A stretch of 63,812 nucleotides of DNA, filler included, from Hausera hauseri (lineage: Eukaryota): the NCBI GenBank assembly GCA_046269625.1. It is 11 parts of 11 records of this genome, joined end to end, with 100 filler letters (N's around TTAATTAATTAA, not from the genome) between each part and the next. Parts side by side here need not be neighbours in the genome. Positions count along the whole stretch, not along the records: positions 17,326 to 23,737 come from JBJURY010103432.1; 10 more parts are not named here. One strand, given 5' to 3'. The notes beneath the pieces were generated by a model, which saw nothing but the letters and a program-made list of their open reading frames with translations, did no database searches and was not told where the DNA came from. Position numbers and translations under genes: made by a program. This document shows positions 1 to 46,911 of this stretch, in pieces. Numbering within the stretch: the first letter of the stretch is position 1; each line of letters opens with the position of its first letter.

Positions 1-93
1 GATTTTTTGATTTTTTGATTCAGATTTTTGGGTAATTAAGAGATCCTAACAAAAGTACCTATTGTTAAGATAAATTAAATTCTATTTCAGCTA

Positions 94-1185
94 TTGTTAC
101 TTGCCCATGATACGAGTCCGATAAGAGAAATAGCCCGGACAATACTGGCTAAGGCAGCTGAGAATAAGAAAGGAAGAAACGAAACAGTAAGAATAACGTT
201 AAATGAAGGAAACCAAGACATGAGGGTCATTAGAATGAATGAAGCTGATGATATACAAACATTACGAGAAAAGATTGAAGAATTGGAACCGTTTTACAAG
301 GAAAAAGTATACGGATTAAGTTTCTATGGACGAACGTTATATACTTATGATAAGTTACTAAGAATTGGATGTAGAACTGAAAATTATAATCCAATTATAA
401 CAGACATACACCCCGATGCAAGAGCAGAAACAACGATAGATAACATAATGAGGGAACTGGAACCTCAAGAGGTCGAAGAGCAACTATTAGGTGATACACA
501 GGATGTTACGGGACGAACAGAAGCCCGAAGAAGAGGAAGGTCAAGAGGAACAAAAATAAGTGATATTCGAAACAGGAAGAATCGGAATGAAGAAATCGTG
601 CGACGTTTATTATTGGCAGGGACGGATACGACGCCAGAATCTATAGATATAGATCCATTGTTAAGAACTCTATTAGCCAAATTACACACGTCATTTGCAT
701 CGTTTGACATGCAAATGGCAATTTCTGACAAACTGTTTCAGACGTTACGTAACGGTATGTTAAAAATTAGTAGGCAATTTTATGAAAATATTGGCGAGGA
801 ACGAATCAATGAATTACACGAGCAAGACATACTAGAAAAGATATTTGCTACAGGAATCACACAAGAGAAAGTAGTAACGGCTACCGCTTACTTATTATAT
901 ACGGTAATCGTTATTAATTATCAGACACAAAATGTTGAGGAAATCGAGAGGAACATCAAGGTAACGGTGAAAGTTTTACGTGATACTTTGGGAAATTGGG
1001 TACAATGTAGAGGCAGATGGATACCAAGCCTAATGAATGGCAGACTAAGACCTGAGGGAGGATCATATGAAAGATCTATCATAACACAATCTAGTGCCAT
1101 TAGACAGGCTCTAGGTGGAATATCATTTATGGAAATATTACAATTATTATTAATAGCATCCATCTGTATGCCTAAAGCTATGGGA
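94..1185 (+). pseudogene. Retroelement polyprotein segment: ubiquitin-like domain (about 181-410), helical region, internal signal peptide
   Basis: ETVRITL...IQTLREKIEEL...LSFYGRTLYTYDKLLRIGC fits a beta-grasp/ubiquitin pattern; hydrophobic ILQLLLIASICMPKAMG directly precedes the glycoprotein. Confidence 0.6.
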
Positions 1186-3000
1186 ATAGTAGACTATGAT
1201 TGTTCGAAGCCCAAAGAAGGGCAGAAGTACTCATTAGTCTATCTAGAAAATGTCCGGAAGCCGATCCAGAACAACTTACTACGACTGGCGTTCACCTCTA
1301 TTGGGTATATTAAGAACAGAAGTTTATTAAAGTTAAAATTAAGAAAGGTTATGTGGAGAAATCGTTCTTTTTGTTTCACTCTGCATATTATTCGGGAAAT
1401 TCTGCCATTATTGAACCAACAACGCCTTTTGAACCAATAATAATATCACGAGTAGAGTGCCAAGATGCTTTTAAAATTGAAGTCATAACAATACAGAACG
1501 CCCAGATACAAGCAGTACGACGGAAGATAAAGTATACTCAAATCTTCCGAGTAGGAAGAATCGACAAAACGATAGAAGGCACTTGTAAAGAAGTAGATTA
1601 CAATGTCGGAGGTACCATCGCTCCAAGAACAGTAGATATCGAAAATTACCAAGTTCAATTAAAAGAGTACGAAAACTATTTGACTCACAGACTAAACTCA
1701 TGACGACAATGAGTGAATGCGAATGAGAGTGGTAAATGTGACACTGGAGAGTCAAAGATGACTTGGGAAATATCTTCAAACCGATGTCACTTGACTTTAT
1801 TAAAAGAAAGGAAATTCAATAAAACGGTAGGAGAGATAGATGAAAAAGAAACTACAACCTATAAGGAAGGAGTTAAAGAAGTGAAAATAACAAATGTTGC
1901 GACAGTCGTGTACTCAGAAAACCCGGAGGAAATGATGCGTTTTAAAATTATGGGACCAAGCAATAAATGTGACGAAGAAATGTCTAAGACCAACTATAAA
2001 GGGATATATCTCTCACCCAAGGAGGTAGCACAGACTAAGACAAAAGTGGATAAGAAAGATATTAAATTAACACAATATTTTGATAACAAGATCGACTTTT
2101 TAATTAATTACGTCAGAAAAGAAATTCGAAGTCTAGAGAGAAATAATATTAAATGAATGCAAGTTAAATTACGAAATAATTCGTAATAAGATGGCTTTAA
2201 TAATAACAAACCCAGATATGGTAGCACCAGTGATGCCATTCGGCGATGGAGTAATCGGAAGAGTGATGAGCGAAGTATTAATAACTATTGAATGTAAAAG
2301 GATAGAAGTGTCTATTAGAGAAACTAAAGAGTGCACTTCAGAATTACCGGTTATCTACAATTCGGAACCCCGTTACGTAATGCCAGTAACACGAATATTA
2401 CTAGACTCCAATGCAAAACCTACGAAACTGGATAATTGCACTTTTAATATGTCGCTAATGTTCAAATTGGATGATAAGTGTATCAAGATGCCGAAAAAAG
2501 AATTGCTGCCGAAACCTGAAACATTAACTTTGATCAATTTACAAAGAAATCAAAGGTTTGAACCACTCACGGGCATATCGCAAGGAGGAATTTACACACA
2601 ACAAAACTTGGAAGATTATCGAAGAATGTTATTGTTTTCTCAGCAAATACAACGTTTAATAACTGAATTAACAAGAAGGGTAATGTGGGACGGAGAAGGA
2701 TCACCACATTGGGAAAATCTGATGGGAAAGGATTATTTGAAGAAAGTAACAAGAAACGTAATGGAAAAGATGTGGGGAAAGTTTTTATATTTCGGCCAGG
2801 CGGCCTCTGGATTTTTAGAAATATACTTTATTATCAGTGCCTTACGAACTATATTTACTGCCCTCGGTAAAGCTTATGGAATCCATGCAGCAATTGGATG
2901 CTCATGGAAAATCCTCATAGCCATAATACCGGCAGTAGCCAGTTGCTTTTTAGCAAATCACCATGCGAAATGGAAAAGGAAAATACTTAAGGAAAAGAAT
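1186..3000 (+). pseudogene. env: Chuvirus (Jingchuvirales)-like envelope glycoprotein, split by a frameshift near 1248 and by stops
   Basis: Motifs IVDYDC..KYSL..LE.C; YFDNKIDF; NPDMVAP..G..GRVMSEVLITIEC..IEV..ET.EC.SELPV.Y...YVMPVTRILL; GGIYTQQNLEDYR; WGKFLYFGQAASG..TM..AYGIHAAIGCSW match the chuvirus G pattern as I recall it. Confidence 0.82.
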
Positions 3001-3363
3001 CACGATACTGAAAATAATTCACCGTATAGCACCTTAAATAATAGAGATGACTTAAATCCAAACCCTAAGAATGATAGATATATAAATCGAATTAAACGGT
3101 TTTCCTGGAAACCCCGAAGGCAGAAATATAAACAAAGACTAATTGCCGACTTACCGCAATTAGATCTCGCGAATGAATACCAAGGGCACGTATACATTGA
3201 TCAGCCTTTAGTAAATCCCTCTGCCCCTCAATATCTGAGACATAGTGGAATGTACCTCACATACCAAGTATTACAAATGAAACAGGCCTATGAAGAAGAT
3301 CCTGTATTACATAATCATGAACCTACGTGTAAAACAAACAATAAAGACAAAACCCAGTCTATT

Positions 3364-3700
3364 ATAAGACCGGAGATAGATATTAAAGTGAATGGATATC
3401 CATTAACCGCGCTAATAGATACAGGATCAATAACCACCATCATGGGACAAAGTCAATTACCTAAAGAGCTAATGAAGAAGTTGCGTAAGGCAAAGAAACC
3501 GCTGGTTAATATTGGAGCCTTTGGCACTAAAGAAATAAAAATGGTTCTCGATGCCATAATCAAGATATGCGACCAGACAATAAAACATGATTAGAATAGC
3601 CAAGAACCTAACCAATAAAATATTGATAGGATGTGACGTACTACAACAGTTAAGTGATGTATATATTAATGTTAAAACCGGTCAACTTAAAACGTTCAAT
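3364..3700 (+). pseudogene. Retroviral-type aspartic protease, in frame with the glycoprotein tail
   Basis: RPEIDIKVNGYPLTALIDTGS (Asp codon 3418-3420) lies inside ORF 2191..3594; ILIGCD motif follows after a frameshift. Confidence 0.9.
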
Positions 3701-4199
3701 AAAGATCGATATGGAGGATCAGTTTCAATAATCAAGGATGTCATAATTCCTCCTCGTTCGGAAATAATAGTATCTGGTAGAATAAAGAATAAATCACTGG
3801 CGAATTGCATGCACTTCGAACCCTTTCCTCAAGTGATGAAAAAACACGACATCCTAGTCGCTCCACAAGTGGATAGAATAAGACAAGGAAGAATTTATTT
3901 GAGGATCTGTAACGCTGGAACGAAAAAAAAAACGATTAAGAAAAAATACTTGACTTGGAAAGATAACAACAATTGAAGAAACACCGAAGGAAGTGATCAA
4001 TTCAATCATCACAGATGTGGAGAAGATTGAGAAAATGATGGTAAAAAAATTAAAGAAAGAAGTAAACCAAAACTAGAGAGAAAAGAAAGCCGGCAACATC
4101 AATTGGGAAGAAAGATTAGGTGTTTGTAAGACCCTAATTAAGAAAGAGAAATATATGTTTATCCAACTGTTATAAAAGAATGATAACCGATTAGCGTGG

Positions 4200-5520
4200 A
4201 ATGATTATGACTTAGGGACGATGAATGCGATACAACACGTCATCAAATTAAAAGACGGACAAGAAAAGCCGATAAAGAAACGACCTTATAGACTAGCATA
4301 CGATAAAAAGGAAGAAGCACGAGAAATTATAAAATAAATGCGAGAAAAGAAAGTAATACGGCCCAGTTGTTCTCCTTGGACAGCACCAGTAGTGATGGTC
4401 AAGAAAAAGGATGGCACCATGAGATTCTGCATATATTATAGAGCATTGAACGAAATAACGGAGACCGATACATACCCATTGCCAAAGATTGAGGAAATAT
4501 TATATAAATTACATGGATCAACAATATTTACCACTATTGATATACAGAAAGGATATTGGCAGGTAGAAGTAAAAGAAGACAAACCGAAAACGGCTTTTTC
4601 AGTAGGTGCAGGATTATGGGAATTCAATATGATGCCGTTTGGATTAAAGAACGGGCCGCCAACTTTTCAAAGAGGAACACAATTACTACTTTTAGACGCA
4701 TCCCATGCTATTGTATATATCGATGACGTGATAGTAGCATCATCGAATTTTCAACAACATTTGAAGGATTTACAAGATCTATTCGACAGATGCGAAATAA
4801 TGGGTTTAAAATTAAATCTCAGGAAGTGCACACTTAATCAAACTGAAGTTGATTTTCTTGGACATCGAGTTGATAGGCATGGCGTCAGACCACAAAAAAG
4901 ACTACTAGGAAAAATCCAAGATTTTCCAAAGCCCACTACTGTTAAAGAATTGCGACGATTTCTCGGACTTGCGAATTATTGTAGAAAATTTATAAAGGAT
5001 TTTAGTAAAATAACTAAACCGCTTTACGAGCTATTATACGCAGACATAGAAAAGGTAATATGGACAAACGATTTCCAGAATCCGTTTGAAAATTTGAAAG
5101 AAAAATGATAAAACGCCCCTATCTTAATTTATTCGGACATGACTAAGCCATTTATATTAACAACAGATGCAAGTGACTATGGAGTAAGAGCAGTTCTATC
5201 ACAAAAAGAAAAGGATGGTGAGGAACATCCAATTGCATATGCATCAAGAAAATTAAATAAGCACCAGAAAAAGTATGCCGTTATCGAAAAAGAATTATTA
5301 GCAGTAATATTCGCATTAGATGTATTTTCACCTTATATCAGTGAGAAGAAACCTTTAGTAATATACACAAATCATCGACTGTTACAATGGCTGAAAATGC
5401 ATGAAAATCCCAACAGTAGATTATTACGATGACTTTAAAACTTCAGCCCTATACATTAGACTTTCAATATAAGCCTGGCACGCGAAATGCGAACGCTGAT
5501 TACTTATCGAGAATGCCGCA
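4200..5520 (+). pseudogene. pol: Reverse transcriptase and RNase H (Ty3/Gypsy)
   Basis: SPWTAPVVMVKKKDG, MPFGLKNGPPTFQR, YIDD, LTTDASDYGV, YASRKL, EKELLA, NADYLSR. Confidence 0.95.
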
Positions 5521-5789
5521 GGAACAAAAGGAACGAAAAAAGTAGTAGCAGCTGTATGAAGCATGGACGAATCCGTAGAAAAGATAAGAGAATCAAAGGG
5601 AAGATGAAGAAATAAAAATGATCAGAAATTATATTCAAAGTATAATTATACCAAAGAATAGAGAGCTAGCTCGTCATTTAGCCCCATTCAGTGAAGCTTA
5701 CAAATCAAAAAACGGATTTCTGTATTATATTCATCAGAATGGACTCGCACTAGTAATTCCAAAAAAATAGAGCAGTCTTACTAACCCAG

Positions 5790-6800
5790 TACCACGACGG
5801 ATTATTAGGCGGACACCAGTCAGTAAAAAAAACGATAAATAAGCTGAGAAGAAAATACTTTTGGTCAACCATGACAAAGGATGTTCAAGACTGGTGCGAT
5901 AGCTGCAAATTATGCGCTACCTGGAAGAATACCGGATCTAAGTTTAAAGCCCCTCTGAAAGTATGGGGCAATCCCCCGGTTCCATTTGAATTTACTGCAA
6001 TGGATACAACTGGACCATTACCACTAACTAGAAATGGAAATCGATACATTTTTGTATTTATAGACTATTTTACTCGATGGGTCGCAATCGCACGAAAAAT
6101 TTGTAGAAAATATTGTATTTAATTATGGAGCTCCAAGGATCCTATTAACAGACCAGGCGTCGAATTTAACCGGCAGTGTGATGCAAGCGATATACGAGAT
6201 TATGAGTATACTAAAGTTGCGGTCAACACCCGCTCATCCGGAAAATAATGGAATGGTGGAAAGATGCATCGGTGACTTGAAGAATAAGTTACAAATGGTC
6301 GTCGGTACTAGGCAAGATGATTGGGACGAATACATTAACACTTGTGTATTCGTAAATCGAACGTCAGTACATGAGGCCACAAAAAAGACTCCATTCTATT
6401 TGATGTATTTAAGAGATGCTAGACTACCCATTGACTTGGATTTCAACGTAAGGCCCACATCCCACTTAATGGAGGTGGAAAAATACAAACAACTAATGCA
6501 AGAGCGATTACAGTTAGCATATAAGATAGTAAAGGATAATCAAAAAGATTATAAGACAACTTATAAAAAGTATAATGACAAAAAAACTAACCAACTGACC
6601 ATTAAAGTAGGAGATTCGATCATGTTATATACTCCACTAAATAAAAAGGGAAAAACATCCAAATCGGATAGACCATATAAAGGACCATACGCAGTAGAAA
6701 AAGTAGATCTACCCAACGTTTGTCTCAAAAAAGATAATACTAATCTTAAAGTTCATGTTAACAGATGGAAACCCGCGCCTAAGGAGAGCGAATTAAGAAA
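5790..6800 (+). pseudogene. Integrase (HHCC zinc finger, DDE core, GPY motif)
   Basis: YHDGLLGGH...CDSCKLC; AMDTTGP; LTDQASN; NGMVERC; YKGPY...VHVNRWKP. Confidence 0.93.
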
Positions 6801-6859: not shown

Positions 6860-8180
6860 ATTACGATGTATTCAAATACTTCTGCCTATGGGTTCTAATA
6901 AGCATGCCAGGCCTGTGAGCTTAGACAATAAAACCACTTGACCCATGGATGAGAACATTCCCTTCAAACGAAACCTTAGAAAATAGCCTAATGATGAGTA
7001 TTTATCATGAGATAACTTATACAAGAAAAAAAGCAAAAATGTATAAGATTTATAGTATTCGAAAGATTACCCAATCAGTACATGATAGGAATCCAAGTAA
7101 TCCACGAGCATGATCATGAGCGAAGCTCGAAGCAACGAAAGTATGATTGCGGCAATACTTATTGGAGGAACACGACGGAATGTATAGTAGACGATTCCGG
7201 CAATTATCTTGTATATTACACTCTGATCAAGAGACATAAGAATCGCTACCAATGGCAATATACCAAGTGCTGAGGTATTATACATGTCTCTAATAGACGA
7301 ATAATTAACACAACCAGATTAGGCGAAATAATACTGACCCAACTTACCATTAAGCCGATAGGATTTAAAAGAAGACGAAGTTGTATAGAAATTAGAACAA
7401 TGATAGAGCTAGAAGAAAATAGAGCTATAAGTATAAGGCTCACGGAGGTAAAAAAGAAACAAAAGATGCCAACAAAATGTCGGCTGACTGACAGATACCT
7501 TCGAGTTTGCTGTAAAGTCGTACGAGAAAGAACCTACGGTGTACAAATTATGTTAATACGAAAGGATTCAGAGAATGTCAAGACTTTGACTTATCAAGGG
7601 CCTAGAACATGTTCCATTTAAAAATGTCGATGAGTATGACGACTACCAGCAACTAAGTGTCACGACACCTCTTGTGAGTCCTACACGACCTAATGAAATA
7701 AAGATTAATTTCGGAGAAATGGCTGTTCTTATGTGACCCCACGTTTTACCCTATCGTCACAAACGTTCAGTTTTAAAAAATGTCACAGTATCTTCCACAC
7801 TTACTTCCTTAGTTGTAGCTATCCCACCTGATTTACATTTCTATAAAATTAAACTTATCTGCAAGCTAGGTCAAAAGATAATAGGAAAAGGAATAATCAC
7901 ACCAGACGATACAATAGTGCCGTATGCCGACCTAAGTCCCAATACAAAATATACGGTTACATTACAACTATATGGCGACGATAATACGATGATTGCAACT
8001 AAATCGTTAACAGCTTCGACGAGAGCCCGAATACAGCAAAAACCAGAAAATGGGAAAATAAGTACAAGCTCAAACCAAAAGATACAACCACCAAAAGCAA
8101 GTTATACTTATTCTCGAATAGAATTAATCATAATAACGGTAGCATGTCCTATAAATTTGTTAATTGTACTGACACGATAA
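6860..8180 (+). pseudogene. Degenerate post-integrase membrane protein with furin site, FN3-like domain and TM helix
   Basis: Hydrophobic FKYFCLWVLISMPG at the integrase end; RHKR at 7755-7766 in frame with LKNVTVSSTLTSLVV...LSPNTKYTVTL and a C-terminal IELIIITVACPINLLIVL. Confidence 0.5.
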
Positions 8181-8383: not shown

Positions 8384-9682
8384 ATGTGCATGATAACCGT
8401 TGTGTTGAAAATAAGTATTCTGTACATACCGATAGTGACGTTATTTCATATAGTCTCCGCTTCAACATTCAACCAAATCCAGTCTATTACAAGATCCAAA
8501 TATTGGTATAATAACGCCAAGAACCACATTATTAACGCCAGTTCAGCCAATCAATACTATGTGACCCATAACGATTATACAATCAGTTTAAATTATCCAC
8601 AAACTCAGCAGATACCCAATAATTTAAAAGGGTACAGCATGGCGAACAGATCTTTGGCGATACTTTAGATGACAAAGGCAACCTCATTATATCATACTGA
8701 CATTATTCTCCTCCCTGATAAATATTACTCATTAAACATTTACTGTATAGTTGGACAGTTCCATATTAAAACTACAGCCAGACAAACCTCAATAAAAGGA
8801 GATCTTATCAATATGAATCCAGAGCATGGATTAGCATTCAATTATTCGTTTATTCAAAACAATACCATAAAGATACGATCTCTTACTAATCAAATAATAA
8901 TGGCAATCGAGGTCATTAGGAACAAAAAGTTTCAACCTAGAGTGCCCAATGGAAAATGTTTTGATCTTCCCGAACCCGATTGTGTCAAAAATAAAACTAT
9001 ATCTTATCGACAAATACAGCAGATTACCGATACTGACCTGGTCATAGCCGCTGTTAATTTAGCCTATTACCATAGGAATCAACTCCAGCCTATCGAGATA
9101 TCTATTATAACTCCCTCTGGAAACACCTTATTCTACACGATCGTCTACCCCAGACAGCGTATCAATAATTTTGATAGCCATATAACTGGCCTAACGGAAG
9201 CAAACATCAGCAATCAGATGGACCCTACAGAAATAATCACGGACAAGATAGTCATTGGAACCGATGTAATTGAATTGATAATAAATCACTTTAGGTGCCC
9301 CATCAGACGGATAGCCGGAGTTCGTAATATTTTATATCACGAAGAGGTTATTCGAAAATACCAGCTATCAATCAATACATACAAAGAACTTGCGAAGAAG
9401 TTCTACGATTCAAAAGGATTCCCTTTACGAAGTACTGCCTTGGTACAATGCTACCAGGCCATCTATTGACAATCAAAATGGAACGATGAATTAATCCTAG
9501 AAGATGCGGCACCCGATAGTGTGCGAAAAGCACAGATAACATCAACATGTGGACGAAAAAGAAAGCTCCAAGTCGACGAAACCGTGATTATAGACGATGA
9601 AATATATGAACCAGAATCTATCCGTTATAAATCCAGATCATCAGATAAAGTTATTCATGTACCATTGCCTTTCGATCAATGA
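8384..9682 (+). pseudogene. Accessory ORF ending in a degenerate DEDDh (REX/ISG20-like) exonuclease fold
   Basis: 8384..8668 and 8669..9469 share a frame, separated by one TAG; IEISIITPSGNTLFYTIVYPRQRINNFDSHITGLTEANI and KIVIG resemble the REX-family core, but the DxE motif is replaced by AAVNL. Confidence 0.5.
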
Positions 9683-9717
9683 CAAATTTGGGACAACTTC
9701 TTCAGTCCCCCATGAAT

Positions 9718-10528: not shown

Positions 10529-10531
10529 AAC

Positions 10532-10549
10532 TGGTGCCGTTACTTGGGA
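10532..10549 (+). promoter_or_regulatory. Primer binding site, tRNA-His-like
   Basis: TGGTGCCGTTACTTGGGA lies 3 nt after ...GAACA and resembles the complement of the tRNA-His 3' end (TGGTGCCGTGAC...); it is just upstream of gag. Confidence 0.75.
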
Positions 10550-10652
10550 TAACTAGGCAAGAAACCTTTAGATAAGCATCTAGGCTACTAAAATTACGAC
10601 CAGAAGAGGAACACCGTATAGAGTAGAGACAGAAGACAACTTACCCTTTGGA

Positions 10653-12127
10653 TTGGAATTCTTAAACAACTTAAGTGAAGAAGAAGAAAACGGAATGGCC
10701 CAGAATGAGCATAACGTAGAACAGGTGATACAGTCGAAGGCCGACTTCACCTTACCCATGAAGAAGTTTTCAGGGAAAGAGGACGTACAAGATTTTATTA
10801 TGGAATACGAGGTATATTTAAAGAGTTTTGGATGGAATGACCAGCAAAGGATGGAAAGGTTACCTCTCCATATTAAAGAAACTGCATTAACGATTTACTT
10901 CCAAATGCCAGAAGAAGACAAAAAGGATTGGAAAACTGTCAAAGATAAGTTGCTTAAAAAGTTTTTAGTTGATCCCTCTGGAAAAGGAAAATAGAATAGT
11001 TTATAAGAAGAAGGCAGCAAAAAGATGAGACAGTCTAGGATTTTATTTGCGCATTGGAAAAGTTAGCCACAAGGGCTTACCCTGATGCAGTAATAAGAAG
11101 TAACGCACTGTTGGCTCAATTCCAATATGAGTTAGAAGGAAAGTTAAGAAGTATAATATTACAAGCTGACCCACCTACATTTCAAAAGGCAATAAGGAAA
11201 GCACAAAAAGCCGAACAGGACACCGAACTATATCGGTGGACAAAATCAAGAAATGATAATGGTAATTACGATAAACGATCGAATAATAGTACACAAAAGT
11301 ATTAGCGGTATAATAGAAACCGAAGCACTTCACAAACATCAGCTACAGAATCTGAGTCAGACATGAAAGAAAGTGAGGTTCAAATTAAAGAACGATAAAG
11401 AAAAGTCAAACTATGAAAAAGGGTCTACAAAAGATAGAAGGGCACTACCAAATATAGATTCGGAAGGAAGCTTAAAGTGTTTTAACTGTAATAAGTATGG
11501 CCACATAGCAAGGGCATGTAGGTCACACAAAAGAGAGTCCACAAAGTCAATAAAGGATTATACATCAGCTACGTCGGATTAATCATCCGATAAAGAACAT
11601 GAAACAGAAGATAGTGAAGAAGAAACAAAGAAAAAAGATAAAAAGAAAGAAAGTGTAAATTATGTTAATGAGATACTATCCCAACATATGAAAAAGAAGC
11701 TAGCTATAGAATTAAAAAACTATAAAATTCAACAGAAACGATTAAAAGAAAATAGTATTTATGCAACGGAAGAAAAGCCAAAAGGAGGAAAAGTACGACA
11801 AGGAAGAAAGAAGGGTAATAAAAAGATAACAGAAGAGGTGGAAAGCAGAGAAACTTCTGTGGAGAAAACCGATTTAGAACAAAAAAAAGGAGACGAAAGA
11901 AAATTGAATCTGGCAAGTCGACGTCGGAAGAAAGTAAAGGAAACGTGCTACCTACAAAAATTTTCGATGAAACCGTTATTGAACAAGTAATACATGATAT
12001 AGAAGTAGACTTAGATGCCGAGGATGATCTTATCCAAGCAGTGATTGCTATAGACCCCGAAAATATAATAGATGTGATTCAAGCGACAAGCACAATACTA
12101 CAATTAATAGACAATAAAGTGTTTTAG
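10653..12127 (+). pseudogene. gag: Gag (capsid plus CCHC nucleocapsid) with a charged C-terminal extension
   Basis: KFSGKEDVQDFIMEYE...W..VKDKLLKKF capsid pattern; CFNCNKYGHIARAC zinc knuckle; interrupted by stops and frameshifts. Confidence 0.9.
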
Positions 12128-15800: not shown

Positions 15801-16137
15801 ATTCAGATGCTGTGGGAGTTAAAACTGGCTGTTCAAACACAGAAAGATCGTAAACCTCATTGAACAAATTCGACAGCAAAGCCCACTTGGTTGTTAAATT
15901 GGGTCTGTACTTTTTCAGCTTGTCATGAAAACGTTCAATTGATCTTTGTAATGCAGTCTCATTAATGGACAGTGTATCATCTGTAGAAGCAACAATGGAT
16001 ACTATTTGCTCAAGCACTTCGCTTGCTTTAAAACCTTCAAAAAGCAGTCGGGCGACAAATCCCTTTTTAATAGGGTAGTCTGCAGAAAATGATGTTAAAT
16101 AATGTCTTAGGTCTGAGACTGTCTTTCTGGCTGCCAT
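12826..16137 (-). mobile_element. DDE transposase of about 1100 aa (hAT-superfamily-like, possibly hATw type), split into three ORFs by frameshifts
   Basis: LAWDATT (D1), TMSDKAPVN (D2), NCLVHPLD (CxxH), GNR, NNMQAERALG (E); breaks lie near A-runs at about 15480 and 14930-15010. Confidence 0.75.
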
Positions 16138-16258
16138 GTCAGATTACAGATTGCCTGTAGATGTAAATATATATACACACATATATACACCTATTAGTAT
16201 CGTGTTACAATAAATTAAACATGCACACACTGTAACAAATTAAGGCCGAGATAGAGGT

Positions 16259-17325: not shown

Positions 17326-17367
17326 ACTCGTAAGTTAATTAAGCATAACTTAATAGACGTTGAAAAC

Positions 17368-18380
17368 ATGGTTGAGAATCAAGCAGTAGCCCAGAGGCTA
17401 GATATTTTTACATTTGATTCTCTGAATCTACGGGCATACGACGGAGACCCGGATGGACTTAATGAATTTCTGAAAACCATTAAGCTGTACGCAGAAAGTG
17501 CTGGACTCGCATCTAATGTAACGATTAAACGTTTGTCGTTATATTTGAAGAATTTGGCCTCTGATGCCTACAGTGAACTCACCGATGATGAGAAGAAATC
17601 TTGGTCCTCCCTGGTAGGAGCCTTAAACCGAAAATTATTACCGACTAACTCCACAACAAAAACTCATGGCTTTTCAGAATGGAATGCAACAAAAGGGTGA
17701 ATCAATAACCCATTTTGCATGTGCCTTAAAGAAACTGGCAAAACAGTTATGTGAGTACCTTAAGAATAGCAAATATAGCCAAAGCTAAAAAACAAAACAG
17801 AACGTGAAGCCGCAGAGAAGGCAAACCCTCCCGATTTAGATGTATTTGGTCTAGAGACATAATAAAGCAGTTGATTTTAGCACATCCAGAGAACTTTGAC
17901 AGAACATTGCAATTAGCTCAAGGCTTAGAAATGGCACTGGACAGGTATGCCAGAAATAATGACACAAACGATAGAAACAATGATTGAAATAATCGTAATA
18001 ATAAAAATCATAATGATAGGCGATTTATAGAAACTATGGAAATAGAAATCAGAGCGGTAACAATGATTATAGAAGTAATCGGTATGGTAAACGAAATTTT
18101 GACAACGACCGAAATAGTCCATCTAGCAAATCAAACTATAGTACGGATAGGCGCTCAGGTGGCCTCAGAAATGTTAACAATGGGAACCGGCATAATGATA
18201 ATCAAAGCAACGATAACCTCAAAATGGGGACACTAGACAAGTCTCGTCGAGTTATAACAGAAATTCAAGTAGATCGAAGTATCCGGTAAATGAAGACGCT
18301 GACAAAGGGTCGGTAGTAACGGTAACCTAATTTGTTACACATATGGACAAGAAGGACACGTAGCGATGTCCTGTTCAAAC
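17368..18380 (+). pseudogene. gag: Gag with Asn/Arg-rich linker and degenerate zinc knuckle
   Basis: YDGDPDGLNEFLKTI...LYLKNLASDAY...SWSSLVGALNRK; CYTYGQEGHVAMSC at about 18330-18375. Confidence 0.8.
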
Positions 18381-21300
18381 TCACTAAGTGTTTCGTTTGT
18401 GGAACCTAGCAAAACTAATATGATTAAGAATGAAAACTTAGAAGCAATTTATGACATCCGTAAAGACACGGGTATGATTATTGAGATACAAGATTTTCGA
18501 CGTTTTTTGAAGACTCAGCCTGATACTAATAATCCAAAAGTTGTGATGGTCAGGAATGAGTATGAGCACAAGTTACGATTGCTAGAAGTGTATCATGGCC
18601 TTAAAGGCCAGAAACTGAATACGAACGTTCAATTGCGCCACCAACGCTTGCTGACATGGTTTGTTGATTATAAGTCGTAGAAAAAGAAATCCAACAATAG
18701 TAACAATTTTTTGTATTTTGTTTCAAATTCCAAAAAAAACTACCAATACTGTAATTTAATCAATTCTTGTACCATGTCTATCATGTAATAAATAATATCA
18801 CAAAGATATCTATATTTTACACTAGCTTTTAGTAGAGAAGTGACGTAGATTTAAATGTGAGCCGAACTGAACTGTCTGTTAAAAAGGAACATTGTAGATG
18901 TGCGAAGCGATGTAACCATTTATTGAAACGACGTTGTAAATAGAATGATGGAAAGTTTATATGGTTTTGGAGCAGTTTGATGATTCAACAAATGATAGTC
19001 CTTCAACGTTTGATTTCATAGACGATTTGATAAACGATTTGAAAAATGATCCTGAACGAGTCACGTGTGGGAGAGATTGCAATTTCCACTGAATGAGAGA
19101 AATTGGATATGTTTTCGGAAACTGGAGATTGACGACCAGTATTCTAGTGAGAAAACGAGCTGCTTCCGCGACCGTGACAGCACACACATGGCACGTAAAA
19201 AGAATTTTCCTGCGACTTATAAAGAAGCATAGAAAGCAGAAAAATTTGAAACCTCAAATAAAGTAGACTTGGACGCGGAACCCGAATATATGGTAAAAAA
19301 AGTAAACAAAAACTATAGAAATTGACGAAGAAAAAGAATTTATGGAATCGCTAATACTAAAAATTACCAAGAATAGAGGCCGCAGCCCATCATTAAAGCG
19401 GAAACGTAAGGATTGTTTGCGATCTCCGATGACTAAGGAAAAGTCAGACGGAGCAAAAAAAACTGAAATCGCTCTAGGAAGTTATGCAGAGTTCATTTTG
19501 AGCACCCAGGAAACTAGTGTAACTACGCCTGTCGAAGTAGAAGAATTAGCAAAATCTGGAAATGAAATAAATGATATATGTCCATTGCCTACTATTGAAG
19601 AAGAGACAGAAGAAGCTGAGAAATTCGATCATAAATAGTGGAAAATCAGACGTTCTGGGAAATTTACTGATGAATTAAAGCGAATAAGGATTAATTGCCT
19701 CAACCCAGACGTATTGCAACAGAATCTGGAGAAACTTAAAGAAATGAGCAAACAAATGGATATTTCCGGTAAAGAACAACAGTTTATAGAAAGGCTATAA
19801 AGAAAAATGAAGTTATGTAGTGAAGGGAAGTTAAGCGAAGCAATCGACCTGGACCAGCCGGAAGAAGTGTCAACAGAAACATTGGTAAAATGGGAACATG
19901 AATTAGAAACGTAGATAAAAGTGGAGTAAGACTCCCAGCGGCATGGGACAAAACTACCCAGGGCGTTGAAGCAAAATCAACCAAGCCCAGTCGTTGGTTG
20001 CCACATTAGAAGCTAATCCGAAATTAAAAAGTGTAACACATAACTTAGAGCGCATCATGAGTAAAATTAAATTTAAAATAGTTGAGCGACTCAAAGAGAA
20101 ATCGGTCAAGGAACAAAACGAAATTGATCTAAAAATATTAGGCATAGATTCCGTAGATATTCCGTCCTTAATGCAAATGATAAAAATTGCTTCCACCGCT
20201 TCTACAAGCCTGGAGAATCCCATTAAGATTGAAACCGAAAAAAGATCGCAAATATGCAGTCTGAGGAATAGAATTATGCAAACAAACAGTGATGAAACAC
20301 AGAAAATAATTACAGCCTGTATCCTCGAATTTGATGAGTATAAGGATAAATTCAACTGCGCATATCAGATCATTGGCTTTATTAAAGGCCCGGATGATGA
20401 ATTAGAAAATGCTCGCAAAATGTTAGAAAAAGCAATACTGGTAAAGCCAAATATCGATAATCAATTAAGTGAATGGTCCAAAGTCATAACACGACTAAGT
20501 AAACTAGTGCAGAGCCACATAAAAGAATTTCCAGAAAGCGAGCATACAGTGAGAAAACAATTAAAACAGAATCTCAGAAATCTTGACACAATGAAAGCGG
20601 AAATAGATATCAGGACCCAATTCGACGCATTACGCCGGCTAAACTTTATAAACGAAAAATAAAAAATAACGATACCAGTGGACATATATAAGATGATTAA
20701 AGAAACGAACTTTACAAAAAAGCGGAACATGACTTGCAACTCTTACTCGAGATTGAGAAATGTCCGTTTAGAAGGAATCCAACATTTGACAGCCGAACCT
20801 ATCGAGATCTCAATTCGTGATCTCAGAACCTTGGACCTTTGCCCGGAACATCGGTCAAATGTAGAAGAAACAATGAAATTCTTGCACAACCCACAAGAAT
20901 GGATGATAGGAACGGATAAAATATGTCATACCGAACTGATAAAAATAAGAAACGACCACCACCTCAGCTTCGAAGAAGCCAAGTTTGTGAAGAAATGCTA
21001 TAGACCCGGACTCAAAATTATCAACGATCTGTACGAGTTAGCGCTACTAATGGTGGAAATGGCAGAAATCAGTGATGAGAAAATAAGGTAATTGCTACCC
21101 CAAATACGGCAAGTCGAAGAAACTTGCTTTATGACCGAACAAAGCGAGGTAAGATTAGACGAAGTGACTAAGGAGCTTAAAGTTTATTAAAATAAGTATG
21201 CTCTTACAGAAGTAGAGAAGGCCGATAAGTCACTTTTCGTGCAGAGCTAACTAAGTATCAAGAAAAAGGATCGATTTCAGCCGAATAATTATGCTAGTTG

Positions 21301-21756
21301 CTAAAAGTATTACGCCAAACTTCCGGAAATGGACGATGTTCACGAACCACTCAAATGATTATAATGCAACAAAAACTGCGCGAAATGAGAGAATCATTTA
21401 AAGACGTAAACGAGGCACAACCACTAGAGATGCTGGAAATTGATTTCGGACTGCCCGAAAATAAAAGTGAATGGGATGCGTATCTAAATGCAGTAGTCGC
21501 CGAGAATCCTAAAACCTTCGTACATTTGTACGAAACGGAGACTTGTGCACCGGATCAGAGATTCAGTGTGGGAATGCTGCTAGACTCAGCACAAACGTAA
21601 AAAGATTTAATTAAGTTAATTAAAGTAAACCTTACCGAAAATCCGCTAAGATAGTTAGTTCCCACCCTAACCAAACTATGAAGCGAAGGTGCGATTTACG
21701 ATGCTGTGCCAAAACTTTTAATAAAAGAGTACGCTAAAATCTTAAAAACAAAGCCA

Positions 21757-21990
21757 GAAGAGACGATTAAAATAAGAATAACGTCCGACGGGATGGACGA
21801 TAAGGAACACGAGTTCACTACGAGTTCTCTTGTGAGAGATGTAGTACTATGGTTAAGGAGTAATGGTTATGCGAATGAACCGAACTGTAGACTCTATTTT
21901 AGAGGAAGAATATTAGATGAATTGGAGAGATTAATAGACGTTGGAATCAATTTATGTGAAACCAACCGGATGGTAGTAACGGTCGCTACG
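21757..21990 (+). pseudogene. Ubiquitin-like domain
   Basis: ETIKIRIT...VRDVV...CRLYFRGRILDELERLIDVGI resembles ubiquitin [21 protein letters not shown]. Confidence 0.65.
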
Positions 21991-22752
21991 ACCGAAACCA
22001 AAGAGGAAACTACAAGAAGGGCTAAAATGTATCACTGTGTAGGACGAATAGTAGGAGTTCAAGATGCAGCGATGTACTTCGAGTATTTGCAAACGGACGA
22101 AGACAAAGAACAATATGATAAGAATTTAGTACCACTCAGTGAGCGCGTTGGTCGTAGCGAAACCGAAGCCTTCCGTCGGTAGACGGCGAAAATCCAAGAA
22201 GAAATTAATCATAGCGGAGACTTAATTACAGGATTGAGGAAAATGTCCATATCGAACTTCAGTGCAGATAACGAAGAGCTGAATGAACTCATGAAAAATT
22301 TGATACGCATAGTAAATCACTCTAGTCTCTGTGGTGATATATTAGACGAGAAAGAGAAATCTATATTCAATGCAGCCAGGATCATGAAAAATTTCCGTTG
22401 TAAATACTCGAAAGGAACCTTAAGCGATGAAATGGTGATCGAGAAAATTATGGTAGAGAACACTATAGAGGAAATGAGAAAAGTATTGCTATATTTGGTC
22501 ATTAAAACAAATCCGACCCGAGGAAGCGAAACTGACAAAGCCACTGGTCTAGCGCAGAAGACCGCCAGGAAACTACCCCAAGAAATAGACTGGTCTAAAC
22601 TTTTTGAAAAGGAAGAGGAACATCGAAATAGAGCTTTCCCTAACCGACTTGAAGACATGATACGAAACTTAACCGGAAATAATCGAGTAAATGACTCAAA
22701 CTGGTTAATCAAATTTGTAACCGTAATGATGTTGATAAGACAATTGGGAGCA

Positions 22753-23737
22753 GTTACAATATATGACTGCGACAAATTCACGTTTGGCCAAAAATATTCA
22801 TTGATTGATTTAGAAATGTGCGAATACGCGAGACCACAAAAACTGAAGACAAAAGTGAAGAATTATGTGCTGTATCAACAACGCGAATTAATCGCACTGT
22901 AACGGTGCAGAATACGATACTGTAAAAGGGTTAGAGTCGAACGTAGTGGTTGCGCATTTCTACAAAACCGAAATGCGCCCACGAAAAGTGATGTTTCATA
23001 GTGTTACTAAACTCTACACGGAAAACCAGAAGTGTCACATCCAGAGCGGCACTTGTTCCAACCAAAACTGGTTGCAATTTTATTAGAATTAAAGAACTTA
23101 AGTTTAATGAAACGACAGGGAAACTTTATATAGGTAGAGGATATAGCCGAACAACCTATACCTACCATATTAATCTCCGATGCTCATAAATTAAAGTTTG
23201 TTAAGAAAGATATACTCACAAGATGTGATGTAATAATGTATACCACTAACTATGAAGCGTTCTTTGTAGCTGAGTCTGAGATAGATGCCAAGACGTTCCA
23301 GCTGAAGACTCAAGGTATTCGAATTGAGGATTATTTGAAGAACAGGGACGATTACTTCTACTATAAAGGACAGGCTGGAATAGCTGAATTATTATACAAG
23401 ATGAAAACGAATGACTGCAAGTTAGACTTAGAAGTCATAAGAACCAAATTGGCCTTAATTTATGCCAATCCCGAACTGGCATCACCAATAATTTTAATGA
23501 AAGAAGACGTTTTTTGCCGGGTGACCGGAGAAGTTTTACTGACCTAGGAATGTGAGAAAAGGGATGTACCCATTAATGTGGAAAAGAAGAGGTGTATACA
23601 AGAGCTTCCAGTGATATATTAAGACGTACCAATATTAGTAACACCAATTACTAAAGTATTGTTGGCAAATTCTACTCAACCTACAATTTTGTGAGACTGC
23701 AAGACCAGTCTAGGCGAACCAATGTTCCAACGGAGCG
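22753..23737 (+). pseudogene. env: Chuvirus-like glycoprotein (N-terminal part, decayed, cut by the contig end)
   Basis: Signal LIKFVTVMMLIRQLGA then VTIYDCDKFTFGQKYSLIDLEMC; LALIYANPELASP...CRVTGEVLLT*ECE...CIQELPVIY...VTPITKVLL. Confidence 0.8.
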
Positions 23738-23837: not shown

Positions 23838-24703
23838 ATATTAATCAATAACTAATCAATAAATTTAAATTCTAACTGCACATTCATATACTACATCATG
23901 TTTGCTTCCGATTGAACCCGATCACGGATTCTAATCATCCATATTGGATTTATCGGAAATTCGATATTATTGATTTTTTCACACTTCCGCACATGTTTTT
24001 GCACTGCACACCACCCACCAAGGTGCATCTCAATGTGCTCTATCTAACTGCACTTGACCCAGATCAATTCCATCAATCCTACGCTGCACAATGGCAAAAG
24101 TGTGTAAAGTGAAAAAGTGCTCCTGCACATCGATCAATAATCACAGCACACTAGAATTGTACACTATTCGATACTACATCAAGTACTGCACCTGTCTGTA
24201 CATGTGCCATTTTGATATCATTGAGTTAAAATTTACAGCGAAAAGGCCTATGGCGGTTCTGCCCCACTTGCGAATTATTCGAAGTCCAATCAATCGATTT
24301 AAATTCTAACTGCACATTCATATACAACATCAAGTGCACTACCGATTGCACTCGGCCCCGAGTGCTAATGATCGATTTTTAAAATCTCAAAAATCCAATA
24401 TTATTGATTTTTCACACTTGCACATGTGCTGCACACTTGCGCTGTGCACCAGTCGATGCACTTCGATGTATTCTATCGATTAGCACTTTGTCCCGATCGA
24501 TTCGATCAATAGTGCACTGTGCAGCGATCGATATGTGCAAAGTGCAAAAGTGCCCTTAGCAACTGTGTCTAGCGGCACCGTTGCTAGGCACGTTATGGAT
24601 CGATAGAGCACAATGTGCACTATCGATCGACATATGTGCAAAATCAACTTATCGATTACCCCACCCCGGGATGGTGGGCCAGAACCTCCATTTTCCCCGT
24701 ACT
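23838..24703 (-). mobile_element. Polinton/Maverick terminal region starting AGTA, abutting a truncated pPolB
   Basis: Minus strand AGTACGGGGAAAATGGAGGTTCTGG...GGGTAATCGATAA aligns with 48770 onward; internal direct repeat of about 430 bp. Confidence 0.7.
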
Positions 24704-27700
24704 TCCATGTCTAACTGCCTGATGGAGATTGATCTAACAGACTACATACCTCCCCCTATTACACAGATGGCAGAGCAGCTTTCTCTGCTTTCCATGAGGC
24801 TGAGGCCTGCTCTCAGGGAGGAAAGGCAGCTGTTGATTACTTGTGTAGATGGAAGAAGGATATTCCATATCTACCTCCAGTATGTATCCCGTATATCCAT
24901 TGGGATCCAGTTCCAGTAAGGAAATGTTTTCAGGATTCTCGACTTATTTGAAGTTATCGTATGACAGTAGGGCGCTAATTGCCCATCCATACAAGTTGTT
25001 GGCATCCAGGTATGATATATATATATGATGATTTCTTTGTTGAGTCGTATTCCGCCATATACTTGTTATTGGACTCACTACCGATGAATGGCCTGGCATA
25101 TTTCACCTCAAATGCCTCTCTCGATCATAAGGATCATATCATAATCCTTAATGATCAGCAGCCTAATACGAGTATAGCGCAGCATTGCTGCCCATCTCAT
25201 TCCTGGAGCTGTAGAGAAATGAGCAGGATCCAAAGCATGGCTCTTCATTGTAACATCCCTAAAACTCTCAAAGGCATCTGTCAGCAACAGCACGCCCGTC
25301 TTGAGGTAAATATCACTGTATTCCCCTATTGTCCCCAATTGCAATGCATGCCAGATTTTCTGGGCATGCTGGTAATCCATATCACTGATATCGCAAACAG
25401 AAAGGATATTGTAAAAGTCCTTATTGTCCGGCAATGGGGTTTCATCCAGTCTTTCCCATGAAGTTATATAATCATAAGGAAACACACCTTTCATCTTGAA
25501 TAGGTCAAATGCAGTGGGGAAGAACCGCTTCGTCTCCCTAAGTTCTTCTGCAGGGAGGTTAGTCACTAAACTGTCCAATAAAGACGACATGAAACAAAAA
25601 CTGTCTATAAAGCGAAGCCTGCTTTTGCCCACATGCTTGGTAAATGTGATATATTTTTCGTCACTGTTGGGGATCACATCTATATTACCACCAATGTTGC
25701 CTAATTCTCGGACTATGAAATGGGAATCATAGGCACTGAGATTATGGAAAACTACAGGCACATATGTGCATGTTTTGCAGCAAAGATTGCAGTTGTTGCA
25801 TGCTGCTCCTCGATATTCACCTGTAAAATGGCAGTGATCCTTGACTTTCCAATTTTCCTTCGTTAACGACGTGTCGCACAAGTAACATGCTGTTGCCTTG
25901 CGCCATTCTTCTGCTTGTTTCCACGACATTCTCATTTTATCCTTATGCTCCTGAAGCATGTTTTCAAGCTTATGAGCCATATATTCAAGTCGTTTTATGA
26001 AATGAGCTGCTTCACCTGGACCCCTGAATAGATGTGGTTTACTGTCCAGTCCTTGGGTATACACACAATACGATGAGAGCTCATGATATTGGTATGCCCT
26101 TGTGCTGATATATTGAGGACTGGCAGTGCAACTGTGAACTAGCCGGAGAATAGCTTCAAAGTTACAATAGATAACTATTGGAACATTGATCTTCTTCTCG
26201 AATTCCTTGAATTCAATATGGTCCTCCTTGGGAAATTCTGGTTTTACACAGTAATTGTTGTTGCAGTTTATTTTATGCTCTGCAAGCTTGTCCACTGCTG
26301 CATCAACTCTGGAATGAGACAGATATCGCTTACATATTTCTATTTGTTCATGATGATTCGTAATTTCGGATCTGACTAGACGCTCAAAGTTCTTGATCCA
26401 AACATAATGTTTCTTTCTTCCATCGTCGAGTAGGATCATATCCCTATTATCTTCTAATTTATTATCATACATCTGCAAGGGATAAAATTTATCATCCTCA
26501 TCCAATCCAAAGATGTTGTCTGATACTTTGTTGAGTCGATTGAACTTCTTAATTTCATGTAAGGATGAAGGGAATGTGGTACACTGGAAGTCATAGTTGG
26601 GCTGAACATCTTTATATTGCCATACTCGTGAAGCATTATGTTGATCAGGCACGAGTTTTGATGGAATGGCATACATTAAACACATGTTGTCATTATTATG
26701 GAAATTCATACATGCTTTTTTATTAGCGATCCAATTAGTGGGTTGAATATATGAACTAACCCGCATGGAGGAGAATCTATGCACATACAGCAGCAATCTC
26801 GTGATAATTGCTGGAGTCCATCCGCTCTTCTTACTTTGGCACTCATCAGCTTCACAGATCAGCTTTGCATGCTCTTCCTACAGCCATTCTACTCTATTGG
26901 TGGCTTTAAAAATTGGTCTATTTTTGGTCTTGAAGGGCCCTTTGGACTTTTCGCCATCAACATTAATGTATGTGGCCTCAAGTTTCATATAAGCCTTAAT
27001 AGCCTTAAGCTCAGCTATGTTGTCCTGAAGAATCACCTCTGTTTCTTCTTCTGTGTACTTCAGGAACTCCTTCATGGTTGTTTGTCCAGTTGCATCAATG
27101 CTATATTTGCGCCATTTTTTCTTTAATGTTGAAACAACAACTGGCCGCTGTCTTTGACTCTTTGATGCAGCGGGTACGCGTGATGCGCGTGATGCGTCCG
27201 ATGCGCATTTTAGTCCTGCATCTGACTGTGCAACAGGTTGTGGTATTGCAGGCTGTGATACTGCAGGCTGTGGTACTGCAGGCTGCGGTAATGGCTTATG
27301 TTCATTAAAGACGATCTTCTTTGACTTTGATGCGAAGTCAGTAGAATGATGTTTGTGATCTTAATAAAACTGTATGTATTCTCCATCACATACAGCCTCA
27401 CATCCTGGGCATATATAATAGATGATCCTATTGAATTTGTATCCATAATAGCTCCTCATGGTATTGTTGCAATTCTGAGGGTTGTGTATTGCACATGTGC
27501 AATACACATATGAACTGCATCCTTGATTTTCCTTTGGCATGAAAGTCGTTACTGGCATATTGGTACTGAATATTTGTTTTTTCGACTTGGTGAAGGGAAT
27601 CAAGTGCTCTTTATAGACATTGTAAAAGTCTTCATAATTTGTTTGGCACACTACCTCACATGTACGAAATATATAATACTAAACCCTGTTGTAAATATGG

Positions 27701-27828
27701 CTAAAGCATTTCATCATAATACTGTGTCAATTTTCAGGCTCATGGATTTGAGACAAGCATTCTTTGTAAAGTTTGCACATCCCAAAATCAACCAATTATT
27801 TGAGGAGCACAATTAAAAAACTCATCAT
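24704..27828 (-). pseudogene. Polinton protein-primed family B DNA polymerase, 3'-truncated
   Basis: NNDNMC...HYVWI (vOTU-like), DHCHFTGEYRGAACNNCNL (EndoVII-like), FHNLSAYDSHF, FIDS, KGVFPYDY, YLDANNLYGWA; one frame with stops from 27828 to 25108. Confidence 0.92.
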
Positions 27829-28263
27829 TCGTTGAAGTGATTTTAAAAATATTGAAAAATATAGCCATATCACTATGTACTGCCCCGTTTATTGATCGGT
27901 TTAATGTTCTTTTGTTTTAATGCATGGATTAAATTATATATATTGTGGCGCCAAATTTAAGTTTCTCGACCATGTGGATTCGAATGGCGTCATTAGATTC
28001 TTCGCATAATGCATGCTTGACCGAATATTCAAGTTCGAATAGCTAATTATTCGACTCCGAAGCTCGAATTCAAATATCTAACATCATATTCCGATTCGCA
28101 ATATATGATTTCCTATCCATGCCCGCTTATAAATTTTTTGATTTCCGCTTCACTGGGCTTTATATGCACATTTTTCTTAATTCGAAATATTGATTTGGCA
28201 TCGATATAGTACATTTTCATGGAATAATTTTCACGTATGAGGGGGTTGTCATATATGAAGAAT

Positions 28264-35751: not shown

Positions 35752-36029
35752 AGAACTATATATGAGGCGCTGCATTAAGTGGATGATCGTTCGGCATGTG
35801 TCGAATGTAAGTGCTGTTGTGTTGTCTCATTTTTTTTTGTTTTGCTGCCTCTATTTTGCATGCCTGACCACTTCTACCGACTAATTCCTGATTTTCTTAC
35901 TGATAAAACAGTTGCTCTTAGTGCTACTCTTGAAGCGAAATAGGATTTTTTTGTTGTTTTTTTTCTTTTTTAGATTCTTGTTGACATATAACATATACGT
36001 GCACATACTTCCCCGAACGATTTTCGATA

Positions 36030-38557: not shown

Positions 38558-38559
38558 TG

Positions 38560-46153: not shown

Positions 46154-46911
<758 letters not shown>

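Follow-up and report, generated by a model that had tools for sequence, protein, structure and literature searches.

Background

Burro (GYPSM1) elements of planarians are giant gypsy elements described as having one ORF for Gag, a Ubi2/SUMO-like domain, BCL2, a mononegavirus-like Env and PR-RT-RH-IN (Arkhipova and Yushenova 2019, PMC6431247). The order GAG-ENV-POL with an HSV/gB-type env has been reported in Platyhelminthes, Nematoda and Bryozoa, including Smed_errantivirus_1-6 (Chary and Hayashi 2026, PMC13524379); the words ubiquitin, Bcl, fibronectin, exonuclease and polyprotein are absent from the main text of that work. Env also precedes pol in nematode endogenous retroviruses (Sacco et al. 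2022, as cited in PMC13524379), and bdelloid rotifer LTR elements with an extra ORF3 have, 3' of pol, an ORF for a DEDD-type exonuclease (Rodriguez et al. 2017, PMC5408684). The DNA analysed here (the window) is a stretch of 63,812 nt from Hausera hauseri (GCA_046269625.1) composed of 11 joined parts, of which contig 3 occupies positions 17326-23737 (JBJURY010103432.1).

Content of contig 3

In contig 3, gag is followed by a mostly coding stretch of ~3.2 kb, after which come a module of helices plus UBL, a further helical domain, a hydrophobic signal and, last, a glycoprotein of the Monjiviricetes/gB type, truncated by the contig end (Table 1). The initial annotation had given the same order from gag through UBL and signal to glycoprotein, which is confirmed by capsid tblastn, the UBL HMM and PF24664; its "~3.4 kb coding" sequence is, however, ~3.2 kb long (18400-21580) and includes a part, 18680-19000, that is not coding-like. 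The helical bundle before the UBL and the helical domain between UBL and signal had been overlooked.

Table 1. Features of contig 3 and contig 1, with positions in the window
Feature	Position	Strand	Evidence
Contig 3			
gag capsid region, frameshifted	17368..17746	+	tblastn with P0001, P0004, P0008, P0009, P0010, P0012, E 4e-6 to 1e-12
Degenerate CCHC zinc knuckle	18333..18374	+	translation; P0012 match E 0.01
Short open stretch, then ~300 bp not coding-like	18400..19000	+	stop-path test
Coding cargo, part of repeat family	19000..21580	+	stops fewer than 100/100 shuffles; family copies cover stretch
Helical bundle + ubiquitin/SUMO-like domain (UBL ~21766-21984), without di-Gly end	21583..21987	+	relatives' HMM iE 1.9e-11
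Helical domain, slot of relatives' Bcl-2-like domain	22183..22632	+	colinear in MAFFT; model pLDDT ~30-54
Hydrophobic segment, likely internal signal sequence	22717..22761	+	best 15-mer hydropathy 1.67
gB/Monjiviricetes-type fusion glycoprotein, first part, broken, cut by contig end	22762..23737	+	PF24664 E 7e-16
Contig 1			
Helix plus UBL module	79..408	+	HMM iE 3.9e-12
Bcl-2-like domain	592..1050	+	Pfam Bcl-2 E 7e-4 (below cut-off); leave-one-out E 2e-22
env ectodomain + transmembrane region	1195..3042	+	PF24664 E 3e-51
PR, RT, RNase H, integrase (Ty3/gypsy order)	3367..6800	+	Pfam; tblastn of relatives
FN3-like domain + transmembrane segment after integrase	7761..8174	+	family HMM iE 0.03; hydropathy
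DEDD/ISG20-like exonuclease remnant	9119..9331	+	35% to L001 ORF2, E 3e-9
gag and linker	10695..12124	+	tblastn; other copies connect ~12124 to ~64

The capsid was matched by tblastn of relatives at 17371-17746 (E down to 1e-12), and translation places the earliest ATG of gag at 17368. As in Ty3/gypsy gag, both a capsid and a zinc knuckle are present on the 5' side, the knuckle being degenerate and unmatched in the Pfam search. The cargo at 19000-21580 is depleted of stops, unlike 18680-19000 (stop test against 100 shuffles); no convincing match to it was obtained from Pfam, NCBIfam, PDB or Atlas, nor did tblastn of relatives match these 2.6 kb. The UBL, the helical domain, the signal and the beginning of env lie in a single frame, and relatives carry a hydrophobic segment at the position matching the signal. 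The copy is decayed, with stops, frameshifts and an env ~105 codons short (144 codons, compared with 246-259 for 13 relatives). Pfam, tblastn of relatives and the family HMM detected neither PR nor RT over the whole length of contig 3, in agreement with the annotated lack of protease and RT between gag and env. A gB/Monjiviricetes-type env after gag with no pol between, the arrangement of GAG-ENV-POL errantiviruses, is thus what contig 3 displays.

UBL module and the slot before the signal

The HMM that found the module in contig 3 was built without window sequences. The UBL matched Pfam Rad60-SLD_2 weakly (E 0.007-0.02), and a model of its region (pLDDT ~60; a single-sequence fold gave only pLDDT 48.6 and was unusable) hit in Foldseek against PDB, among the matches listed, nearly all ubiquitin/SUMO folds, with a best E of 4.7e-4. 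A domain of this type between gag and env, as in Burro-type elements, is therefore present in contig 3. Of the 14 relatives, 12 have the module, and the other two proteins begin downstream of it. A di-Gly near the UBL end was seen in 1 of 16 relative matches and in neither contig 1 nor contig 3; since the di-Gly end is missing, the UBL likely serves for binding rather than being conjugated as a tag or cleaved by a deubiquitinase. A TFIIS-N likeness of the helices preceding it gained no support from Pfam.

The slot before the signal appears to hold variable cargo, Bcl-2-like in some lineages and likely anti-apoptotic there. The Bcl-2-like domain is weak but consistent, being detected in contig 1 and 6 of 14 relatives and undetected in contig 3; all 18 PDB matches of its alignment (A2) belong to the Bcl-2 family (E 0.11-2.2). 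A Bcl-2 identity for the helical domain of contig 3 was not supported (hhalign 13.5 against a shuffle 95th percentile of 14.5; hmmsearch E 0.12). Searched together with the UBL against a viral fold library, this domain gave no Bcl-2 and mostly ubiquitin-like matches. Residues 420-760 of P0001 yielded no usable Atlas match.

Copies and relatives

The contig 3 family is multicopy: 4,889 contigs of run X1, which may derive from the source sample, were placed on contig 3, covering all 30 bins, and 4,158 of them are <95% alike. Joints in X1 connect the parts of contig 3 in order, and deletion joints occur among the copies too. One other copy spans 21071-21728. X1 contigs have little summed depth over 18610-19250, and ~18650-19300 is missing from two of them (joints 18641>19249 and 18659>19309).

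Env lies before protease in all 11 long proteins and in L001, that is, in 12 of 12 long intact relatives; the long-protein search took only proteins of at least 1,884 aa and so was unable to return pol-less forms. The same frame continues into RT-RH-IN in L001 and 8 of the 11, while the other three stop after protease. Five relatives have gag-UBL-env-PR-RT-RH-IN in a single frame, and P0001 runs from gag to env in one frame. The Ty3/gypsy order PR-RT-RH-IN was found in contig 1, L001 and the same 8 long relatives, and nowhere within contig 3. Relatives' env are 42-78% identical to that of L001. Of the 9 relatives that carry RT, 8 have an FN3-like membrane protein after the integrase; hydropathy places hydrophobic segments on both sides of env and of this protein. 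Two relatives, P0003 and P0005, have ankyrin repeats.

Of three loci from a motif scan, one (L001) is clearly related; L002 shares the motif alone, and L003 looks like a chance match. Queries with the contig 1 env-PR among longer proteins (no homologs) and with the P0001 env (P0001 alone returned) are weak negatives. Neither the scanned viral contigs nor an alignment-based metagenome scan gave a relative.

Comparison of contig 1 with contig 3

Contig 1 and contig 3 share 43% identity over 102 aa in env and 26% over 74 aa in gag, with a best blastn E of 0.065 between their DNAs, so that the reported protein resemblance without evident DNA similarity was borne out. The two had been said to show the layout independently; this stands as regards evidence and fails as regards origin, the elements being homologous. 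In both the env tree and the gag tree, contig 3 is a long branch without a well-supported sister. The family HMM detected no pol piece matching contig 3 in the other window contigs, and reads placed on contig 3, which ends inside env, gave at most 30 loose letters.

Contig 1 is related to contig 3 but circularly permuted, as joints leading back in other copies indicate: its gag end joins its UBL start there, so the order gag-UBL-env is the same. Its env shares one ORF with protease (from 2137; RVP E 1e-6 in that ORF), and the family pol profile best matches Ty3 Gag-Pol. The alignment of the post-integrase domain (A6) matches FN3-containing PDB chains; L001 ORF2 matches RNase_T and, best, ISG20. 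No terminal repeat was found in either contig. Contig 1 has a single non-coding stretch (9700-10690) with CA and, starting at 10532, TGG, by eye a possible primer site; its unit is ~12.1 kb and likely includes one LTR. The initial estimate of ~15 kb is larger than this unit but fair for the contig 3 type, which would measure ~14.6-14.9 kb, with a second LTR to be added, provided that its 3' half is like that of contig 1.

Discussion

Very probably, contig 3 represents the 5' half of one decayed copy of a multicopy retrotransposon, likely Burro-type Ty3/gypsy and from a probable flatworm, with gag, cargo, UBL and a gB-type glycoprotein, pol likely following as in intact relatives. By sequence comparison, its gag, UBL module and env are homologous to those of the intact relatives; by analogy with these, pol would come after env in its own family as well. 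The order of env before protease in every long intact relative, with the same order in contig 1, upholds the proposal of an old family trait rather than a one-off rearrangement. The implied novelty of the layout is unsupported, because this layout, real and common to intact relatives, is already published for planarian elements.

It is improbable that the contig 3 family is a non-autonomous derivative that kept gag, cargo and env, lost pol and is copied by contig-1-type enzymes. The unobserved pol, the short env, the deletion joints and the three relatives ending at protease would suit such a derivative, but every long relative runs from env into protease, and the missing pol is uninformative where the contig ends within env. 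Still less probable is that gag and the UBL-env portion come from different nested insertions, or that the stretch between is largely foreign. One strand and a similar A-rich composition throughout, a self-blast without repeat or target-site signature, copies in all bins with joints tying the parts in order, and relatives with the same order in one frame all speak against it; the non-coding-like 18680-19000, the low depth with two contigs bypassing it, and the cargo unmatched in relatives speak for it, and a small insertion may lie near 18650-19300, leaving the layout unaffected. That the glycoprotein is an endogenised negative-strand RNA virus fragment lying beside gag by chance is largely refuted already: although the Pfam family takes its definition from fusion proteins of Monjiviricetes, the glycoprotein is in frame with the UBL module, its detectable relatives lie in retroelement polyproteins and the viral contig scans gave no relative.

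The retrotransposon resembles Burro in the gag-UBL-env-pol order, the Ubi/SUMO-like domain, high copy number and, in two relatives, ankyrin (PMC6431247). Unlike Burro as described there, the elements are ~12-15 kb rather than >30 kb, no dUTPase was matched, contigs 1 and 3 have no Pfam match to BIR, MATH or ankyrin, and contig 3 has no Bcl-2 signal. In view of the unit size of contig 1 and the lack of BIR/MATH/ankyrin cargo in contigs 1 and 3, the element was filed as Burro-like and not Burro proper, a likely assignment made on described domain order. By eye, env rows of Smed_errantivirus 1-6 resemble the env of contig 1, P0001 and L001, and the relatives' env are unlike the bryozoan rows and the two nematode rows compared (PMC13524379); that work deals with intact copies, whereas the contig 3 copy is decayed. 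Env ahead of pol is shared with nematode endogenous retroviruses as presented there.

One polyprotein would be translated without splicing or frameshifting, the cytosol retaining Gag, cargo and UBL. The internal signal would direct the glycoprotein to the ER, where host signal peptidase may free its start, and the env transmembrane segment would bring the chain back to the cytosol (a topology predicted from hydropathy). There the element's protease would liberate RT, RNase H and integrase, and a second signal after integrase would export the FN3-like membrane protein. Production of Gag, Env and Pol in equal numbers, with all three tethered at the membrane, would favour enveloped particles. More tentatively, the retroelement could be infectious and enter cells by means of two proteins cut from one multi-spanning polyprotein: a gB-type fusogen encoded ahead of pol and a separate attachment protein with FN3 repeats encoded after integrase. 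Its host-control cargo would be swappable; in the contig 3 lineage, another module may have taken the place of the Bcl-2-like one, and ~2.6 kb of protein cargo, of a kind not yet described, may have been acquired.

Contig 3 and its relatives widen a group that is published but little studied. The gag-UBL-env-pol polyprotein has been kept in lineages that share an env block of only ~43% identity and coexist as large families in one sample. Its helix-UBL module, gB env and pol form a constant core, whereas the cargo varies and includes Bcl-2-like domains, ankyrin, extra proteases and unknown domains. The FN3-like membrane protein and the exonuclease are unmentioned for Burro in the available portions of PMC6431247. 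We have not met the former in print for this family, and figures or supplements of Sacco 2022 and Grohme 2018 may already show FN3-like or exonuclease cargo; the FN3-like protein is a testable candidate for target-cell choice by such elements. A DEDD-type exonuclease ORF 3' of pol is shared with the bdelloid elements, in which env is of the paramyxovirus F type and follows pol, and whose exonuclease is DEDDy/RNase D-like, whereas L001 ORF2 best matches ISG20 (PMC5408684).

Domain order of contig 3

The window consists of 11 contigs with N spacers in between; contig 3 (17326-23737) is compared here with contig 1 (1-12138). Contig 3 had initially been annotated as gag, about 3.4 kb of uncharacterised sequence, a ubiquitin-like domain (UBL), a signal and a glycoprotein (env). 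This order was confirmed by the gag, UBL and env matches listed in the table, with the uncharacterised stretch measuring about 3.2 kb instead. That stretch, which follows the zinc knuckle, gave no convincing match in Pfam and other searches; its stop count was below that of all 100 shuffles at 19000-21580 and not at 18680-19000. Neither a protease nor an RT was found anywhere in contig 3 with Pfam, the relatives' proteins or family HMMs, in agreement with the claim that none lies between gag and env.

Features of contig 3 and the other contigs (window positions unless L001, a related DNA locus, is named)
Feature	Location	Strand	Basis or remark
Gag capsid region, contig 3	17371-17746, ATG at 17368	+	matches from relatives, E down to 1e-12
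Degenerate zinc knuckle, contig 3	18333-18374	+	translation
Helix-plus-UBL module, contig 3	21583-21987	+	HMM from relatives only, iE 1.9e-11
Helical domain, contig 3	between UBL module and hydrophobic segment	+	colinear alignment with relatives
Hydrophobic segment, contig 3	22717-22761	+	before env
Monjiviricetes-type fusion protein (env), contig 3	after 22761, truncated by contig end	+	E 7e-16
FN3-like membrane protein	7761-8174; L001 ~4811-5314 and 9122-10027; P0004-P0010	+ in window	family HMM, hydropathy
DEDD exonuclease, separate downstream ORF	9119-9331; L001 10617-11528	+ in window	closest ISG20, E 5e-4
Decayed protein-primed DNA polymerase B, Polinton/Maverick-like	within 23838-28263, 38558-43804, 43905-50818, 50919-55286, 60076-63812		pieces in three contigs
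Leishmanolysin (Peptidase_M8), intron-free	35985-38057		E 4e-94
731-codon ORF with two shorter ORFs upstream	12826-16143	-	no passing Pfam match
Tandem arrays, contig 5	28817-29719 and 32210-32384		~96-nt and 32-nt units

The same helix-UBL HMM finds contig 1 at iE 3.9e-12. In the predicted model of the contig 3 region, pLDDT is about 60 across the UBL; almost every PDB match listed for it is a SUMO or ubiquitin fold. As proposed, contigs 1 and 3 are alike in protein (43% identity across 102 aa of env and 26% across 74 aa of gag) and not in DNA, blastn between them giving no significant match. Contig 3 took no supported position in env and gag trees. Its copy carries numerous stops and several frameshifts, with an env stretch of 144 codons versus 246-259 in 13 relatives; it is dead.

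Env precedes pol in the relatives

The related protein P0001 runs from gag through env in a single 1,130-aa frame. In L001 the reading frame stays open for 3,426 aa or more, running from UBL and env into three proteases and on to RT, RNase H and integrase. The L001 env query recovered 11 proteins (2,099-4,057 aa), all with env N-terminal to protease; eight reach RT-RH-IN, and P0004, P0005, P0008, P0009 and P0010 are complete gag-UBL-env-pol proteins. This search admitted long proteins only and was blind to pol-less forms, but did not select for domain order. The best match of the family profile was Ty3 Gag-Pol. The helix-UBL module is present in 12 of 14 relatives, with a di-Gly near the UBL end in one of 16 hits.

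Several contigs of a public run connect ~12124 of contig 1 back to ~64; contig 1 is thus circularly permuted, its true order being gag, linker, UBL, Bcl-2-like domain, env, pol and 3' cargo in a unit of about 12.1 kb. This shared order and the 11 long proteins support the layout as an old family trait. Thirteen relatives, namely contig 1, L001 and the long proteins, lead us to infer that pol follows env in the family of contig 3 as well. The layout of contig 3 is real; its novelty is low.

The helix-UBL module is doubled in three of P0003, P0004, P0005 and P0013, the last having an additional UBL-like match near its C-terminus. As many as three or four copies of retropepsin, some of them beyond integrase, occur in L001, P0006, P0007, P0008, P0010, P0011 and P0013. 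Between env and RT lie ankyrin repeats (P0003, P0005) or C2H2-like fingers (P0006, P0007, P0013).

Copies and element size

Copies were surveyed in a public run that contains the contig 3 stretch and may be the source sample. Contig 3 was matched by 4,889 run contigs (206 at >=99%, 525 at 95-99, 2,114 at 90-95 and 2,044 below 90) and contig 1 by 16,947. Since the former cover all 30 bins of contig 3 and deletion joints among the copies connect its parts in order, the entire contig, cargo included, is repeat-family sequence. One further copy spans 21071-21728, and a copy-specific insertion is possible near 18650-19300. By arithmetic from blastn and joint data, gag lies about 2.5 kb further from the shared env block in contig 3 than in contig 1, so a contig 3-type element would be 14.6-14.9 kb plus a second LTR, provided its 3' half resembles contig 1. 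The suggested size of about 15 kb thus suits this type and not the contig 1 unit. The non-coding stretch of contig 1 holds three 52-nt tandem repeats (9715-9885) and a possible primer-binding site (10532).

The slot before env

A domain before env is shared by contig 1 and six of 14 relatives (P0001-P0005 and L001); the other eight lack it. Pfam Bcl-2 matched it in four cases, all below cut-off (E 8e-5 to 0.055); all 18 PDB matches of its alignment, which also took in the contig 3 segment, are Bcl-2 family, each weak, and leave-one-out recovered seven of seven members. The helical domain of contig 3 aligns colinearly with this slot. Its hhalign score against the Bcl-2-like family (13.5) was below the shuffle 95th percentile (14.5), and its model was low-confidence even with Bcl-2-like rows in the alignment. 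Either it is a Bcl-2-like domain that has diverged too far to be recognised, or it is another domain.

Cargo and proposed polyprotein

After integrase, eight of nine RT-bearing relatives encode a second type I membrane protein with a signal, FN3-like repeats, a Ser/Thr-rich stalk and a transmembrane segment; L001 has an extra copy between its proteases. Pfam fn3 did not match the post-integrase repeats; of 30 PDB matches of their alignment, 29 are FN3-containing by name (best E 4e-5, summed over repeats). By hydropathy, hydrophobic segments flank env and also the post-integrase protein in relatives.

By analogy with known signal sequences and retroviral proteases, Gag, Env and Pol may be parts of a single membrane-threaded polyprotein that signal peptidase would cleave on the lumenal side and the element's own protease in the cytosol, yielding the three in a one-to-one ratio. 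The UBL, Bcl-2-like, exonuclease and FN3-like parts may be host-interaction cargo; a two-glycoprotein entry system is possible, though less likely than not.

Comparison with known elements

For GAG-ENV-POL elements, Chary and Hayashi cite Sacco 2022. Such elements with a gB-type env are described from Nematoda, Bryozoa and Platyhelminthes by Chary and Hayashi (PMC13524379). By eye, the env sequences of contig 1, P0001 and L001 look like the six Schmidtea rows of its supplement and unlike the bryozoan and nematode rows inspected; the host is therefore probably a flatworm. The element works like Burro, the giant planarian gypsy elements with Gag, a SUMO-like domain, BCL2, Env and then PR-RT-RH-IN in one ORF (PMC6431247), but is without their size and cargo features, and is thus classed as Burro-like. 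BURRO1 is described in PMC8532177 as a PIWI-silenced, expressed planarian transposon. Exonuclease cargo is documented in rotifer elements (PMC5408684). The word "fibronectin" is absent from the text of PMC6431247, PMC13524379 and PMC5408684, and among the papers listed by a literature search none was on FN3-like cargo in such elements.

Other contigs

Contigs 4, 7 and 8 share DNA at 75-92%, and contig 9 has frames resembling Polinton capsid pieces by eye. The 731-codon ORF looks DNA transposase-like by eye. The leishmanolysin has a Thr/Ser/Asn-rich stalk and a hydrophobic end and adjoins another intact ORF; the sequence bearing it possibly comes from a protist in the sample.
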